Shown piece by piece: positions 7,603 to 33,231 of a DNA stretch of 64,000 bases (the stretch's first letter is position 1; the number at the start of each line of letters is the position of its first letter). Under the pieces are notes generated by a model. That model did no database searches. It saw only the letters and a list, made by a program, of their open reading frames with translations, and was not told where the DNA came from. A program made the position numbers and the translations under genes. The stretch spans positions 329,677 to 393,676 of the forward strand of contig DFRJ01000002.1 in the NCBI GenBank assembly GCA_002378195.1, given 5' to 3'. This DNA is from Patescibacteria group bacterium UBA3466 (lineage in GTDB: Bacteria > Patescibacteriota > Minisyncoccia > Phycocordibacterales > UBA918).

Positions 7603-8859
7603 TTATCTGGCTTTAACCCTTTTCAGATCTGACCACTGAGTCGTATAAGCTGGTGACCTGGTTTCTGATCTTGATTGCCACTCAGCTTTTTTCAGCCGAC
7701 TTCCGATCTGCACCAATTCACTATCCGCTTTCTCATTTAAAATATCGATAGAACTCATGAGGTCTCTCCTGTCTTCTTCTTTGCAATCATTAAACATAGT
7801 AGTCTGACTTCCTCCAGCCGGCACCAAATTAGATAAGCTAACTCCGACTTTTTTATAGGGCACATCTGGCTCATAGAGCCGCTCCACCAAGTTGCTGGCG
7901 ACTTTCATTAAACTAAGTGTATCGCTAGTTGGGTTGATAAATATCGTTTCATCTGAGCCTCCTCTTAGTAGAAAATCTCCATGTCGATTAGTTCCCAGAT
8001 AAACTCTAATATTCAGTGTTTCTTTAGCTATTCTTCGCAGATCTTCTGCTACATGCCGCACATGATAAGCTACTGCATCTTGCAATACCGCCAGCTCCTT
8101 TGTCTCAACTTTGAAGGATCTTGAACTTAAAATACTCTTTTGTTTTCGATCACCCTGCTCTATCAACAAAGCCGGTTCACTACGCAGTTCAGACTGTATT
8201 CTAAGTCCATTTATACCGAATAATTTAGCCACCACCGACCGATCTAGCGCTGTTAAATCAGCCACTGTTTTTAAACCATGCGATCGATAATTGAGCTCGG
8301 AACTAGCGCCCAGTCCCCATATTTCCGCCAATCTTATACCGTCCACCAATCCGTCCCACTCAGTTTCTCCAATAACCCTTACACCTACGCCTTTTTTGGC
8401 TACGGCGTTGGCGTACTTTGCCTGAGTCTTGGTGAGAGACACGCCAATCGAAACGGGTATACCAACCTCTTGCAAGATGATTGATCTCAGATTATTAGCA
8501 ATATCTTCCACCTCAGCCTCTGGCGGTAAAGTAAAGAATGCTTCGTCGACTGAATACTGCTCAACGTTTGCCAGCTCTCGCTTCACTACCTCAAAAACTC
8601 GCTTTGAGATATCTCGATACAGAGCCAAATGCGAAGAGAACGTTACAATTCCCTCTTTTTTAACAATGTCCTTTATCTTAAAATAAGGGACACCCATAGG
8701 GACACCTATGTCCTTTACTTCTTTAGAGCGAGCCACTACACAGCCGTCATTACTTGATAAAACCAGTACCGGAACATTCTTTAATTCGGGCCTAAAGAGT
8801 CTTTCGCAGGATACAAAAAAATTATTACAATCTAACAATCCGATCCACTGCTTTTTCAT
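7603..8859 (-). CDS. umuC: Y-family translesion DNA polymerase, UmuC-like (Pol V catalytic subunit)
   Basis: N-terminal LLDCNNFFVSCERLFRPEL...VLSSNDGCVVARS matches UmuC (LCDVNAFYASCE...VLSNNDGCVIAR). The catalytic SVDEAF motif is present. The C-terminus YTTQWSDLKRVKA matches the UmuC C-terminus YTTRWSDLLRVK. Confidence 0.85.
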   Translation of the reverse strand: MKKQWIGLLDCNNFFVSCERLFRPELKNVPVLVLSSNDGCVVARSKEVKDIGVPMGVPYFKIKDIVKKEGIVTFSSHLALYRDISKRVFEVVKRELANVEQYSVDEAFFTLPPEAEVEDIANNLRSIILQEVGIPVSIGVSLTKTQAKYANAVAKKGVGVRVIGETEWDGLVDGIRLAEIWGLGASSELNYRSHGLKTVADLTALDRSVVAKLFGINGLRIQSELRSEPALLIEQGDRKQKSILSSRSFKVETKELAVLQDAVAYHVRHVAEDLRRIAKETLNIRVYLGTNRHGDFLLRGGSDETIFINPTSDTLSLMKVASNLVERLYEPDVPYKKVGVSLSNLVPAGGSQTTMFNDCKEEDRRDLMSSIDILNEKADSELVQIGSRLKKAEWQSRSETRSPAYTTQWSDLKRVKAR

Positions 8860-29567: not shown

Positions 29568-30074
29568 TCAAATCGTATTAAAGTAATCCCAAACAGTAGC
29601 CAAACTTTGCCAAAGTTCACCATCACCATCGACCGCCGTGCCGCACGAATCTAAGAAATACGTCTCACCGGCTACGGTAATTTCATAAATTAGATCCAGT
29701 CCATCAACATCAGAATTACAACTTTCCGGATCAACCGGCTCAGATTCAATCGCCAGCGCTTCTGGTGTTAAATTAACTTTTAACTGCCTACTAATATTTA
29801 ACGGCAACACACCTTCACGAGTCAGTCGCTCACCATTGTCATCAGCACCATAAATAACACGATACTCACCATCATTATTAACATGAAAAGACGGACAAAC
29901 ATTCCGACACCCACCATACATGTCAGCAGTTACCGAAAACTCAGTCAAGGCGATACGATCATCAGCCACTCCGTTATTAACCAACGGCAAAAAACCAGTG
30001 GTATAGAAATATGCTCCGGTAAAAATCCCAGCGATTAAAGTAATAACTACACTCAGCCAATCCTGCTTATACAT
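29568..30074 (-). CDS. Secreted or membrane-anchored hypothetical protein (N-terminal TM, several Cys)
   Basis: ORF with an N-terminal hydrophobic segment. Confidence 0.45.
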   Translation of the reverse strand: MYKQDWLSVVITLIAGIFTGAYFYTTGFLPLVNNGVADDRIALTEFSVTADMYGGCRNVCPSFHVNNDGEYRVIYGADDNGERLTREGVLPLNISRQLKVNLTPEALAIESEPVDPESCNSDVDGLDLIYEITVAGETYFLDSCGTAVDGDGELWQSLATVWDYFNTI

Positions 30075-30141
30075 AATCCTAAGTATATCACCATAAATCT
30101 ACCATTTAATACAATTGGTTATGAGTACCAATATTCATGTA

Positions 30142-30180
30142 CAAAAAAATGGCTTCGCGCATATACATGCGCGAAGCCAT
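30142..30180 (-). terminator. Strong intrinsic terminator: a 14-bp-stem perfect hairpin (ATGGCTTCGCGCAT-ATAC-ATGCGCGAAGCCAT) followed on the minus strand by T8
   Basis: Read directly from the sequence. It lies downstream of the GC-rich ORF. Confidence 0.7.
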
Positions 30181-30224
30181 GGGCAAAGGATTCAAGTGCA
30201 AGCACATAGAATCCAAAGTCTAGG

Positions 30225-30818
30225 TCACCTTGCACCAACCGCCGCGGGGCAGTCGTCGCGCCAGTCGTAGCCGAGCCAGTTAGCGTACCAGTGCCACCTG
30301 TCGCCGACCCAGAGGAGATAACGGACGTAGAGGCGGCCGTCCCGGTTGCGGTAGATCGTCCCCCAGAAGAAAACGGCTTTGCCTTTCCACTCCTCGGGAA
30401 TGAGATGCGGTTTGGCGATCAGGTAGTCGAGAACATTTGCGTTCAAGACAGGCTTGTTCGCCAACCCCTTGCGGAGCTTGTAGCCTTTAATCCTTTTGCC
30501 GTTCTTCTGGCCTTTGTCGCGGTGGAGCGCATTCTTCTGGGATTCTTTGTCCCATTTGAACGCACCGCGTACTCGATTTGGGAGTTGCCCGTCGTCGGAC
30601 AGAATCGACCAGCCGTCGGGAACGTGCGGCTTGGCGTCGCAGTCGATGATGTGCTCAGGGGTGATAATTTCGACATCGCCAAGCAGGACGCGACGGACGG
30701 TGGCGAGCATATCCCCTTGCGAGAGCTTCTTCACTTCAGCCGGAGTCCAGCCATTTCGCTCGAAAGCGTGATCGAGTTCCGCAGCTTGGCGCGTAGACAT
30801 GATGAACCTGTCAGTCAT
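30225..30818 (-). CDS. Hypothetical protein encoded in an anomalously GC-rich segment (W/R-rich C-terminus), probably horizontally acquired
   Basis: AGAGGA RBS 8 nt upstream of the ATG at 30818. Local GC is visibly much higher than in flanking DNA. A long ORF overlaps on the opposite strand (30291-30935), as expected in GC-rich DNA. Confidence 0.5.
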   Translation of the reverse strand: MTDRFIMSTRQAAELDHAFERNGWTPAEVKKLSQGDMLATVRRVLLGDVEIITPEHIIDCDAKPHVPDGWSILSDDGQLPNRVRGAFKWDKESQKNALHRDKGQKNGKRIKGYKLRKGLANKPVLNANVLDYLIAKPHLIPEEWKGKAVFFWGTIYRNRDGRLYVRYLLWVGDRWHWYANWLGYDWRDDCPAAVGAR

Positions 30819-31067
30819 GACGTGTTCCTCTTTGGTTGTGTGACGTGTTCGAAGACGAACGTGTCACTTGCCAGCGGGCCTAACCGAGTATTTAGGGTTT
30901 GCCGTAGCAGCCAAAGTCCAACTTTTAGACACTGACTGCCACGGCAGACGTAAGTTTAAAAGGATCATTCGATCTAAATTTTGCCACAATATATTAGCAT
31001 TGTAAAGACAAGCACCCTAAACCGTCTTACACCTAGAATCAGATTGGTGCACACAGAATCTCAATCA

Positions 31068-31181
31068 TGGTGCAAGGATGCGCCTCGCAAAGAAAGCGGA
31101 GAAGACAGGATTCGAACCTGCTCACGGTAAAATAATCTCCCAGATTATTTTACCCCACACACGCTTTCCCCTGCAGTGCGG
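31068..31181 (-). repeat. 114-nt repeat A, copy 1. It is tRNA-like: a T-arm-like GCAGGTTCGAATCCTGT plus an acceptor-like 3' strand, a perfect 12-bp hairpin (GGTAAAATAATC-TGGGA-GATTATTTTACC), and ...TTGCACCA at its minus-strand end
   Basis: It matches 31993-32106 with 1 mismatch. I could not fold it as a complete tRNA: no 5' acceptor strand is present. Confidence 0.6.
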
Positions 31182-31272
31182 GCGGTCTCGAGTTAGGACC
31201 GTGTGATACCAAGCCCTGCTTGACCGACTCAACGATATTTTGGATTTAAACCGATAGTGCCTCGAGCACTTA

Positions 31273-31869
31273 CTACAATGAAGCTTCAAACTCTTTTTTA
31301 AACACCGCTAATACATACTTTGAAATTGCGTAGATGCCTAAAATATGACTTTCAGTTTCATTGAAGGACCAACTTCTACAATGCAATAGAGTATCGTTAT
31401 AGTTTTTATCTGAATGGGCACCCTCCTTATTCGCAACCGATCTTATCAGTTCTCTTATGGTAATTTGTTCCTTGAAAAGGATTTGATCAACCCATTCATC
31501 CACCGACATTTCTTCCATTTCCTTTGAGAAGAGTAAAGTGAATATAGGTATTGTTTCATTTATTACCTCCAACCTGCCTGGCATCACATTCTGTAAACCA
31601 TTTAGTAACGATGGTGTGTTTTCAAGTATTTTTACAAAGTGGAGTTTATGTAACTTAAAATCTGGAATGATACGATTTATAAGTGGAGAAGGGTTCGTTT
31701 CACACAGTAACTTTCTTAGCTCAACTGCCATTGGTTGATATGTGAGAAAATTACCTGCTTCATAGGTTCCAATGTGAGTTTCGAGAAGTGTGAAACTATT
31801 TTTTAAATCCTGTTTGTTCTTTTCTGAAGCGCTCATGCCGTCATTATAAACAAAACCAGCACGAAACAT
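31273..31869 (-). CDS. Hypothetical low-GC protein (198 aa), the cargo between repeat A copy 1 and the tRNA-Ser 3' fragment
   Basis: ORF with no family recognised. It sits inside the tRNA-associated repeat structure. Confidence 0.5.
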   Translation of the reverse strand: MFRAGFVYNDGMSASEKNKQDLKNSFTLLETHIGTYEAGNFLTYQPMAVELRKLLCETNPSPLINRIIPDFKLHKLHFVKILENTPSLLNGLQNVMPGRLEVINETIPIFTLLFSKEMEEMSVDEWVDQILFKEQITIRELIRSVANKEGAHSDKNYNDTLLHCRSWSFNETESHILGIYAISKYVLAVFKKEFEASL

Positions 31870-31893
31870 AGTGTCTCGTGCTAGCTCTAAACG

Positions 31894-31942
31894 GCGGAGA
31901 GTGAGGGATTCGAACCCTCGATACGATTTCTCGTATACATCC
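31894..31942 (-). repeat. 49-nt direct repeat of the 3' part of tRNA-Ser(GGA) (variable arm, T-arm and acceptor 3' strand); an att-like scar
   Basis: It is identical to 32104-32152 of the intact tRNA. Confidence 0.7.
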
Positions 31943-31992
31943 GCCGACCTGATTTTTAAGGAGGCACGACTATAAAAATGGAAGTGCCCTAG

Positions 31993-32106
31993 TGGTGCAA
32001 GGATGCGCCTCGCAAAGAAAGCGGAGAAGACAGGATTCGAACCTGCTCACGGTAAAATAATCTCCCAGATTATTTTACCCCACACACGCTTTCCCTTGCA
32101 GTGCGG
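31993..32106 (-). repeat. 114-nt repeat A, copy 2, abutting (3-nt overlap) the 3' end of intact tRNA-Ser
   Basis: See copy 1. Confidence 0.6.
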
Positions 32107-32190
32107 AGAGTGAGGGATTCGAACCCTCGATACGATTTCTCGTATACATCCTTTCCAAGGATGCGCGATCGACCACTCTGCCAACTCTCC
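32104..32190 (-). tRNA. tRNA-Ser (anticodon GGA), type II with long variable arm; the 3' CCA is not encoded
   Basis: The minus strand reads GGAGAGT-TG-GCAGAGTGGTCGATCGC-G-CATCC-TTGGAAA-GGATG-TATACGAGAAATCGTATC-GAGGG-TTCGAAT-CCCTC-ACTCTCC-G. The anticodon loop is TTGGAAA. A variable-arm hairpin is present. Confidence 0.75.
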
Positions 32191-32325
32191 GTGGTGGGCC
32201 AGATTATACATTTTTATTACTCGCGGCGTAAGGGCCGTAAACAGATCTCGACCTACCTTGGCCCCTAAATTCACTTCGTTCATATCGAGCGCTAGCACTC
32301 TCATTTGAGATTAGTGGCAAGTAAA

Positions 32326-33231
32326 TTAATTTTGTTTTCCATCCATTCCCCTTAGTTTTGCAATCCGGTCGGTGGCTGGCGGGTGAGTAGCGAACAAACC
32401 ATTAATTTTCTGCATTACTCCCCTGCTGCGCTCTTGAAATGGATCAGAAATAAACAAATGAGCAGTGGCATGTGAAGCTTTTTGCATCGGTCGGGCAGTG
32501 GCGCTAATTTTCTCCAGCGCTGACGCCAAACCTTCAGGATACCGAGTAAGCAACGCTCCAGTAGCATCTGCTAGATACTCACGCTTCCTAGAGATGGCTA
32601 GCTGTATCAGCTTGGCCGCAATCGGTGCCAGGATAATCCCTACAATACCAATCAATAAGAAAGCCGGATGTCGATCACGATTGTTGCCGCCACCGTAAAT
32701 CAACGTGCGCGAAAGCACATCAGCCACGATCGCTACAAAGCCAGCCAACACTACCGCCACGGTCATCACCAACATATCTCGATTGCCAACATGAGCCAGC
32801 TCGTGCGCCATCACCCCCTCGAGTTCGTTGCGATCCAAGAGCTCCAAGAGGCCGGTAGTAGCGGCTACCACGGCGTGTTCTGGGTCTCGCCCAGTCGCAA
32901 ACGCATTGGGCGCCGGATCATCGACAATGTACACCCTTGGCATCGGCAAGCCAGCAGTAATAGATAGATTTTCGACGATGTTATAAAGCTCTCTCGCCTC
33001 TTCTCTGGTCGCTGGCTTGGCGTTCGTCATCCGCAACACGATCTTATCTGAGTACCAATAGCTTCCGATACTGGTCACAAGCGCCATAATCGCACCAATG
33101 TACAAAATAGCTGGATTGCCCATATACCAAGACACCCCGTAACAAATAGCAATCACCATCACCGCAAAAAAACCCATCAACATGAAGGTTTTCATGACAT
33201 TATTCGATTGTTGGGTATATAAAGTCGACAT
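32326..33231 (-). CDS. htpX: Zinc metalloprotease HtpX (M48 family)
   Basis: HELAHVGNRD zinc motif. TM topology and length fit. The start may be the internal MKTF at about 33195. Confidence 0.85.
   Translation of the reverse strand: MSTLYTQQSNNVMKTFMLMGFFAVMVIAICYGVSWYMGNPAILYIGAIMALVTSIGSYWYSDKIVLRMTNAKPATREEARELYNIVENLSITAGLPMPRVYIVDDPAPNAFATGRDPEHAVVAATTGLLELLDRNELEGVMAHELAHVGNRDMLVMTVAVVLAGFVAIVADVLSRTLIYGGGNNRDRHPAFLLIGIVGIILAPIAAKLIQLAISRKREYLADATGALLTRYPEGLASALEKISATARPMQKASHATAHLFISDPFQERSRGVMQKINGLFATHPPATDRIAKLRGMDGKQN

Follow-up and report, generated by a model that had tools for sequence, protein, structure and literature searches.

Cis-mobilisable elements (CIMEs), known from the Streptococcus thermophilus literature on integrative and conjugative elements (ICEs), are stretches of att-flanked DNA that lack recombination genes. 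Where an island has integrated into a tRNA gene (tDNA), the regenerated tDNA marks one boundary and a displaced fragment the other, and crossover sites centred on the anticodon as well as crossover sites in the T region are common (PMC4383910). Partial tRNA genes commonly arise through the integration of genetic elements (PMC9897764), and group I introns are frequent in the anticodon loops of tRNA genes of Patescibacteria (PMC13011429). Here we compare these systems with a 114-nt direct repeat that lies behind a tRNA-Ser(GGA) gene in a 64-kb stretch of contig DFRJ01000002.1 (hereafter the window). The DNA stems from a marine Paceibacteria population (Patescibacteria, candidate phyla radiation). 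The locus is described on the minus strand, which also carries the nearby genes. We found that the repeat is no tRNA gene. It is probably a dead chimeric piece of a tRNA-Ser(GGA) gene, i.e. a scar of recombination or of an attachment site within an integration hot spot rather than an RNA gene.

Composition of the repeat

A repeat search of the window yielded two copies in direct orientation, a and b (Table 1), which match at 113 of 114 positions and whose starts are 925 nt apart. Read on the plus strand, the sole mismatch is a C at 31171 in copy a and a T at 32096 in copy b. The original prediction had already described two near-identical copies that differ by 1 nt and lie 0.9 kb apart, a perfect 12-bp hairpin with a TGGGA loop, a T arm with a Ser-type acceptor 3' strand and discriminator, and a match to the anticodon-stem region of the adjacent tRNA-Ser. 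All of these were found again, and its proposal of a chimeric tRNA fragment created by recombination is borne out by a base-for-base alignment with the tandem tRNA genes of a relative.

This relative, L024, is the closest informative one (HtpX 83% identical) of the 80 related htpX loci to which we compared the window; the closest htpX neighbourhoods in species-representative genomes all belonged to metagenome-assembled genomes (MAGs) of Paceibacteria/Parcubacteria. L024 contains a complete A-type tRNA-Ser(GGA) with the acceptor GGAGAAG/CTTCTCC, the T arm GCAGG and the anticodon stem CACGC/GCGTG. Downstream of it follow a 13-nt spacer, CTTTGATTGGCAG, and a partial B-type tRNA-Ser that begins with GCGCATCCTTGGAAAGG. 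From GGAAAGCGTGTG on, the repeat aligns with the A-type tRNA from the anticodon to the 3' end (alignment A1). The anticodon part is identical at 12 of 12 positions, and the T arm plus acceptor at 26 of 26 (31096-31121, including the GC at 31096-31097). The spacer then agrees at 9 of 13 positions and the B-type piece at 11 of 11, after which the sequences diverge, the same piece running on as a partial second tRNA-Ser in L024. The tRNA-derived core of the repeat thus runs through the tandem from one anticodon loop to the other, from G34 of one allele to G34 of the next. Both of its borders lie in the anticodon loop, one between CTT and GGAAA and the other behind CTTG. This loop is among the sites where elements that target tRNA genes usually cross over.

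The hairpin occupies the position of the extra (variable) arm of a tRNA-Ser and is 20-22 nt longer than the extra arm of functional relatives (L024: GGGG-AGAAAT-CCCC). Within the window its palindrome is confined to the two repeat copies, with 0.01 matches expected in shuffled sequence. We also considered the hairpin as an intrinsic terminator and rejected this, as neither strand has a T run behind it and a terminator scan made no call. The original prediction had further taken the end of the repeat as a CCA-like terminus. This did not hold: 38 nt, including the 13-nt spacer and the 11-nt B-type piece, separate the terminal GCACCA from the discriminator, so that the CCA is unrelated to a tRNA 3' end.

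Search for an RNA gene

ARAGORN, run with default settings, with introns of up to 3000 nt and in its modes for transfer-messenger RNA (tmRNA), called the neighbouring tRNA-Ser, which is the only tRNA of the window, and none in the repeat. In the region 29900-32400 no Rfam family matched the repeat at its gathering score or at E<=10, and neither ARAGORN nor the Rfam models detected a one- or two-piece tmRNA in it. A blastn-short search of the whole window with a related full tRNA gave matches limited to 3' parts inside the two copies; an A-type 5' half with a GGAGAAG-type acceptor strand was not found in the 64 kb. Split, permuted and intron-containing tRNAs were rejected, as the ARAGORN runs with introns and tmRNA modes, the Rfam search at E<=10 and the search of the window for the 5' half all found none. 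The repeat does contain the T arm with its TTCGAAT loop, the acceptor 3' strand and the discriminator (CTTCTCC G). It has no complete cloverleaf with a paired acceptor 5' strand and a D arm, and no anticodon stem of 5 bp that closes a 7-nt loop: from the anticodon arm, the loop's 3' half and the 3' strand alone are kept (GGAAA GCGTG), and ACTGC replaces the 5' strand CACGC. Its fold energy is not unusual (z = -1.75). The original prediction had likewise not found the 5' acceptor strand and had denied the element the status of a canonical tRNA, which agrees with our searches, and the full fold with an intron model that it had named as its own refutation was sought by ARAGORN and Rfam and did not appear. 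Its title "tRNA-like", applied to the whole element, goes too far, given that the acceptor 5' strand, the D arm and the anticodon stem are lacking.

Part of the repeat recurs in an unannotated, structurally conserved tRNA-like element that we found beside tRNA-Ser and tRNA-Leu genes of related Paceibacteria and for which we coined the label SerX (Table 1). SerX directly follows the terminator of a tRNA-Ser(GGA) or tRNA-Leu gene; at the tRNA-Ser loci it fills the stretch between this terminator and a repeated tRNA 3' end. Its fold consists of an acceptor-like helix that matches the neighbouring tRNA, a hairpin P2 off the 5' strand and a T-stem helix, with no anticodon arm. The T loop carries an insertion of 60-110 nt with two hairpins, the last of which has a conserved ATGTAAT loop. 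In an alignment of 8 sequences 19 of 29 pairs showed compensatory changes, where the acceptor and T helices copy the neighbouring tRNA and hence are not independent evidence. Rfam contains no family for SerX. A covariance model (R1) found new members in L061 and L065 and, behind tRNA-Leu, in L104 and L105.

The hairpin of the window follows a motif, GTAA-stem-TGGGA-stem-TTAC-(C)GTG, that is common to SerX P2 of L026 and L105-107. In the window as in these, the motif sits immediately 5' of a T-stem strand, and L026 has it once more upstream of its tRNA, in a hairpin beside a 5' fragment of tRNA-Ser. A motif of the form GTAA..TGGGA..TTAC-GTG is expected 0.14 times per 64 kb. This suggests, as far as such a comparison of motifs can, that the enlarged extra arm of the repeat was derived from the SerX family. 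At L105, direct repeats of ~160 nt (1342-1500 and 7853-8010), each comprising the CCA end of a tRNA-Leu, a terminator and a SerX, flank a 6.5-kb segment. The latter encodes a PF07508 recombinase, a LigT-like protein, a homolog of the window's open reading frame ORF197, a template repeat (TR), bAvd and a reverse transcriptase (RT). It looks like an integrated element that carries a diversity-generating retroelement (DGR) and uses SerX as its attachment repeat. SerX thus shares with the repeat the hairpin motif, the position directly behind a type-II tRNA gene and, at L105, the occurrence as a direct repeat around an inserted element. In contrast to the repeat, it has an acceptor 5' strand and the T-loop insertion of 60-110 nt with two hairpins, and contains no anticodon remnant. 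Membership of the repeat in the family was rejected, as a cmsearch of the window with the SerX model gave no match at E<=1. An origin of the repeat from an undescribed SerX family of anticodon-less tRNA mimics, marked by one long extra-arm-like hairpin with a conserved TGGGA loop, with the repeat still acting as a functional site that shuffles single-gene cassettes behind tRNA-Ser, seems improbable to us. If it were true, the SerX family would provide small integrative elements, among them carriers of a DGR, with a landing and attachment module, or would be made as an RNA handled by tRNA enzymes.

The seryl-tRNA synthetase SerRS reads the acceptor stem and the long extra arm of its tRNA. A repeat with an acceptor-like stem, a long extra arm and a T arm might encode a functional, SerX-related tRNA-like RNA that lacks the D arm and a normal anticodon arm and is recognised by RNase P/Z, the CCA-adding enzyme or SerRS. 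With its threshold lowered, ARAGORN folded 31096-31171 and 32021-32096 in both copies as a three-armed "tRNA-Pro(GGG)", with the acceptor GGGGAAA/CTTCTCC and the hairpin loop CTGGGAG used as anticodon loop. The motif shared with SerX P2, the compensatory changes in the SerX helices and the complete identity of the tRNA-derived parts to L024 fit such an RNA as well. The terminator scan moreover gave no terminator-like site between copy b and the intact tRNA-Ser, so that copy b probably sits in the 3' trailer of this gene and may be co-transcribed with it. Nevertheless, we consider a functional RNA of this kind quite improbable. The putative acceptor stem is imperfect, with one mismatch and one G-U pair, and the base that differs between the copies disrupts its first pair; a 12-bp "anticodon stem" would be unworkable in decoding. 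The stability of the fold is not significant (see above), nor did the SerX covariance model recognise the repeat. The whole repeat has no homolog in the other genomes searched, and hence no covariation, and its 5' part is by homology the remnant of an anticodon arm. The locus therein resembles described partial tRNA genes, where a piece with T arm and acceptor misleads readers and relaxed predictors, as here the "tRNA-Pro" call; unlike those, the fragment here is duplicated and has a palindromic enlargement of the extra arm by 20-22 nt (PMC9897764).

Since the breaks can be placed at 33/34, where an upstream exon would end in U33 and a putative intron in G, the borders of the repeat could also be read as traces of a group I intron that once sat in the tRNA-Ser anticodon loop: they would be its former exon-intron junctions, and the flanks GCACCA... 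and ...CACTGCARG the intron ends. Introns of this type are frequent in the same phylum and disrupt the same sub-site of tRNA genes (PMC13011429). Unlike at such introns, no intron core was detected (Rfam Intron_gpI gave no match in 29900-32400 even at E<=10), the exons are incomplete, without any complete 5' exon, and the intervening DNA is a protein gene or just 55 nt. The 55 nt between the B-type piece and a second, 49-nt tRNA fragment (see below) are far below the size of a group I intron, and the 830-nt alternative is taken up by ORF198, which in relatives is located outside any tRNA. This explanation is largely refuted already, and we regard it as very unlikely.

The locus behind tRNA-Ser

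On the minus strand htpX is followed by the intact B-type tRNA-Ser(GGA), repeat copy b, a 50-nt spacer S and a 49-nt tRNA fragment. Then come a terminator-like hairpin, ORF198, a 91-nt tail, copy a, 249 nt with a promoter-like site, ORF197, a terminator and the host gene ORF168. The 49-nt fragment, which forms a direct repeat with the intact gene (31894-31942 = 32103-32151) interleaved with the 114-nt repeat, had been overlooked in the original prediction. For spacer S no relative was found.

Many contigs of this population break within the repeat, i.e. assemblers struggle there, and the arrangement might be a chimeric join at repeated tRNA sequence during metagenome assembly. The same arrangement was however present in independent ENA/TARA, JGI and NCBI assemblies, with the same order and junctions in ENA TARA scaffolds, JGI contigs, an NCBI MAG and megahit contigs. 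The two ORFs beside the repeat are encoded identically on TARA Oceans scaffolds, on JGI contigs and in the MAG GCA_002320355.1. One contig of 1.4 kb covers the tRNA, copy b, ORF198 and copy a, and single contigs cover all four repeats. Because it recurs across independent assemblies, including such spanning contigs, the arrangement is not an assembly artefact, and an artificial join is hardly conceivable.

The tRNA-Ser gene of the relatives is a frequent site of rearrangement. A tRNA-Ser(GGA) lies inside the fetched 7-kb htpX flanks in 57 of the 80 related loci. In L069 an extra tRNA-Ser 3' piece, which begins in the anticodon loop, follows 12 nt behind the tRNA, and at 9-10 loci the tRNA-Ser 3' end, from the middle of the T loop on, is repeated 126-175 nt downstream. 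As side observations, the B-type tRNA-Ser of L024 (7614-7865) is split after AGTGG in the D loop by ~170 nt that hold the complete A-type tRNA-Ser(GGA). In L024 as well as L026 (11898-12010(-)) an orphaned tRNA-Ser 5' fragment precedes an AT-rich hairpin whose loop is TGGG(G)GA or TGGGA; behind this hairpin, L026 has the complement of the fragment, which results in a long fold-back.

ORF198, the gene enclosed by the two repeat copies, forms a discrete unit with the hairpin upstream of it and the 91-nt tail. The unit is located directly behind the tRNA-Ser 3' end in L029, L110/111, L112/113 and L116, the last of which has the first ~25 nt of the tail only. In L110/111 it lies behind a tRNA-Ser(TGA) and in a different neighbourhood. 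In L029, L110/111 and L112/113 the homology stops at ~31178-31181, no more than 2-3 nt from the 5' edge of copy a, and the genes beyond differ. Since the homology of the unit ends at this edge, copy a and ORF197 can be taken as an insertion relative to L029. Relative to L110, copy b, spacer S and the duplicated 49-nt tRNA part are an insertion into the tRNA. The GC content is 0.35-0.37 for ORF198 and 0.55-0.58 for ORF197, while that of the flanks is 0.40-0.47; the base composition of both genes is thus foreign.

The ORF198 protein matched no Pfam, NCBIfam or PADLOC family and was weakly similar to phrog_7805, a PHROG of unknown function. A confident AlphaFold2 model (pLDDT, the predicted local distance difference test, of 88) weakly resembled RNases of the HEPN fold and had no Foldseek match in the PDB. 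ORF198 is no recognisable recombinase. As a separate observation, three copies of a motif C(T/A)CGAGAC(ACTAT) surround ORF198 on the minus strand: in the upstream hairpin (31851-31889), just past the stop codon (31253-31269) and at the end of the 91-nt tail (31180-31192). The first and the third site are also present in L029, L110 and L112, the post-stop site also in L116. The motif may be a regulatory or recombination signal.

In several respects the locus corresponds to described tDNA islands, whose displaced fragments the Islander method uses (PMC4383910). An intact tRNA is followed by 3' fragments in its own orientation, namely the 49-nt piece and the two A-type parts, all on the minus strand. 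These fragments begin within or next to the anticodon loop: the A-type part from G34 and the 49-nt fragment from position 40, while the B-type piece ends at G34. As in island arrays, the fragments look tandem and DNA of foreign composition lies between and beside them, the 49-nt piece being a textbook displaced fragment. Unlike in described islands, there is no integrase gene inside, the "islands" are one gene long, and the junctions are not clean. Also, the 114-nt repeat is no plain fragment of the resident tRNA; it is a chimera that joins the 3' part of another allele to a piece of the resident one.

From the homologies, break points and repeats established here, together with the missing tRNA fold and the foreign composition, we infer the following order of events and the involvement of recombination enzymes. 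An ancestor would have carried two tandem tRNA-Ser(GGA) alleles, A and B, as retained in L024, where the tandem itself would have come from an element that imported its own tRNA copy. Recombination in both anticodon loops would then have stranded the segment from the A 3' part over the spacer to the B 5' part behind an intact B-type tRNA. Later, the ORF198 segment with its own 49-nt tRNA-Ser 3' fragment would have become enclosed by two copies of this scar, either through a ~925-bp circle that integrated via the scar or through homology-facilitated illegitimate recombination with a sibling genome. The orphan ORF197 would have been left behind by another integrated element. The duplication of the scar would be recent, since the copies are identical at 113 of 114 positions.

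The original prediction had also considered the repeat as a tRNA-derived small RNA, for which there is no support, and as the att site of a mobile element, which is plausible. Taken further, the copies would be working attL and attR sites of a cis-mobilisable ORF198 cassette, which forms a ~925-bp circle with a recombinase encoded elsewhere and has the hairpin as part of its recognition site; the locus would then be a tandem array of the tRNA, the ORF198 cassette and the remnant of a DGR element. Indeed, direct repeats of 114 nt that are 99% identical enclose a single gene of foreign composition, and the breaks lie in the anticodon loop, a usual crossover site. The ORF198 unit occurs behind tRNA-Ser in differing neighbourhoods and at another isoacceptor in L110, and the tRNA-like repeats of L105 with the same hairpin motif flank an element that encodes a recombinase. 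As in CIMEs, att-like direct repeats surround a short segment without a recombinase, for which mobilisation in trans is conceivable. Unlike for CIMEs, no cognate integrative element was identified in this genome. Neither an empty site (tRNA-Ser, one repeat copy, then TGATTGAG...ORF197) nor an excised form or alternative junction was present in any of ~15 independent contigs. In L029, L110/111 and L112/113 the unit ends before the repeat and no second repeat is present. Together with the missing recombinase in the window and junctions that share no overlap sequence, this makes working sites of a mobile cassette rather unlikely in our view.

The junctions also excluded models of a clean tyrosine- or serine-recombinase reaction, as they regenerate no common overlap or dinucleotide. 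The repeat differs from integron attC sites in that its palindrome is perfect and inside tRNA-derived sequence and that no integrase was found; core sites GTTRRRY were not visible at its ends, which were inspected by eye only. At the left junction there is only a microhomology of CCG/CCGC.

Several results weigh against the interpretation of the repeat as an inert scar. No integrase, recombinase, resolvase or RT family was among the precomputed Pfam hits within +-10 kb or in a search of 20 further mid-size ORFs of the window. Four ORFs had no family at all, and tblastn searches of the window with the recombinase, RT and Avd of L105 were empty. The junctions are not those of a clean site-specific reaction: the full 7-nt loop is regenerated at neither border, and GAAA is lacking between the B-type piece and the 49-nt fragment. 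The tRNA-derived parts are identical to L024 at 49 of 49 positions, the spacer at just 9 of 13. Such identity next to a diverged spacer would be surprising for an old pseudogene and speaks for gene conversion, selection or a recent origin (from a functional gene). The perfect 12-bp hairpin with its shared motif may mean that the repeat is not wholly inert. Finally, the whole repeat was not found in any other species searched, and its history rests on one informative relative, L024.

The searches behind the last statement covered the 80 related loci plus those of the homologs of ORF197 and ORF198, where BLAST gave matches at the tRNA level only. In metagenome contigs there was no match to a full-length tRNA pattern with a long hairpin (TGGAAAGCGTGTGTGGGGTAAAAT), a weak negative given that the collection is partial. 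Equally weak is the absence there of the junction pattern TTCTCCGCTTTNNTTGNNAGGCGCATCC, which a JGI contig behind L003 does contain. In viral contigs the repeat hairpin had no match, and the left- and right-junction patterns gave none or one chance match inside a phage gene. The T-arm/acceptor string matched tRNA-Ser-like genes of phages that are unrelated to the hairpin. As an aside, in the viral contigs L016, L017, L018 and L020 tRNA-like genes begin with GGAGAAGTGGCG.AA..GGTAGACGC and end with the T arm and acceptor of the repeat. Their central parts are long and odd, and ARAGORN made no call or called one "tRNA-His(atg)"; they may be unusual type-II or intron-bearing tRNAs.

Table 1. Coordinates of the repeat, its parts, the neighbouring features of the window, and SerX in related loci (prefixed by locus)
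Feature	Position	Strand	Remark
Repeat copy a (D1a)	31068..31181	-	repeat search, alignment to L024
10-nt junction CCGCACTGCA, copy a		-	5' end of copy a
A-type tRNA-Ser(GGA) 3' part, copy a	31169-31097	-	from anticodon G34
Perfect hairpin GGTAAAATAATC-TGGGA-GATTATTTTACC	31126..31154	-	12 pairs, 5-nt loop; second copy 32051-32079
T arm and acceptor 3' strand GCAGG-TTCGAAT-CCTGT-CTTCTCC	31098..31121	-	2 matches in window, 0 expected
Discriminator G, copy a	31097	-	
13-nt spacer, copy a	31096-31084	-	
B-type tRNA-Ser piece, copy a, 11-mer GCGCATCCTTG	31083-31073	-	identical to positions 26-36 of adjacent tRNA-Ser(GGA); followed by CACCA
Repeat copy b (D1b)	31993..32106	-	starts on final 4 nt of intact tRNA-Ser
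Intact tRNA-Ser(GGA), B-type	32103..32190	-	ARAGORN, Rfam
tRNA-Ser 3' fragment, 49 nt	31894..31942	-	exact duplicate of tRNA positions 40-88 (32103-32151)
Spacer S, 50 nt	31943..31992	-	between copy b and 49-nt tRNA fragment
Terminator-like hairpin	31851-31889	-	conserved; 3' of 49-nt tRNA fragment
ORF198	31273..31869	-	enclosed by the two repeat copies; GC ~36%
ORF198-unit tail, 91 nt	31182..31272	-	conserved in L029, L110/111, L112/113
ORF197	30225..30818	-	GC ~57%; 249 nt downstream of copy a; promoter-like site 31006-30978
ORF197 variable region	~30230-30352	-	compared with L105 template repeat
SerX	L026:11637-11768(-), L024:7904-8036, L068:8783-8931, L075:8190-8326, L094:8024-8177, L081:8795-8930, L043:8542-8687, L112:3304-3442, L061:2692-2840, L065:2572-2690(-), L104:7263-7381, L105:1376-1505 and 7886-8010		

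ORF197 and implications of the repeat

Differences between a variable region and its template that are confined to template adenines are the signature of a DGR. For ORF197 there are more than 1200 homologs, none of which is named; most stem from Patescibacteria. At L105-L109 a template repeat, bAvd and a reverse transcriptase of the RVT_1 family lie behind the homolog, i.e. the remaining parts of a cassette of variable protein (VP), TR, Avd and RT. At L105 all 18 differences between variable region and template repeat were found at template adenines. When we compared the variable region of the window with the template repeat of L105, 17 of 23 differences were at adenines. The 64-kb window contains no copy of the template repeat, no Avd and no RT, including in tblastn searches with the L105 RT and Avd, and within the window ORF197 is accompanied by neither a cognate template repeat that differs at adenines nor an RT. 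By its homology, ORF197 is the remnant of a DGR, namely a homolog of the variable protein.

Two further observations concern the surroundings of ORF197. Its leader (30895-30959, minus strand, ~80-140 nt upstream) is conserved at the DNA level with the distant homolog loci L104-L109 and contains a hairpin, GCCGTGGCAG...CTGCTACGGC; it may be a structured 5' untranslated region of this family of DGR targets. In addition, the final 10 nt of the repeat, CCTTGCACCA (31068-31077 and 31993-32002, minus strand), recur inverted at 30228-30237 (plus strand), right at the ORF197 stop codon, so that a 10-bp inverted repeat encloses this gene together with its leader. In the window CCTTGCACCA has 3 matches, compared with 0.16 expected.

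The 114-nt repeat is a further instance of known tRNA-gene debris, which is ordinary at tRNA integration hot spots. It illustrates why fragments that contain a T arm should not be annotated as tRNAs or tRNA-like RNAs. The repeat has modest value as a marker of allele turnover, in that the tRNA-Ser(GGA) of these reduced-genome bacteria is repeatedly replaced or split by incoming DNA. The by-products of the analysis, SerX beside type-II tRNA genes in many Paceibacteria and the orphan DGR target in the window, may outweigh the repeat itself.

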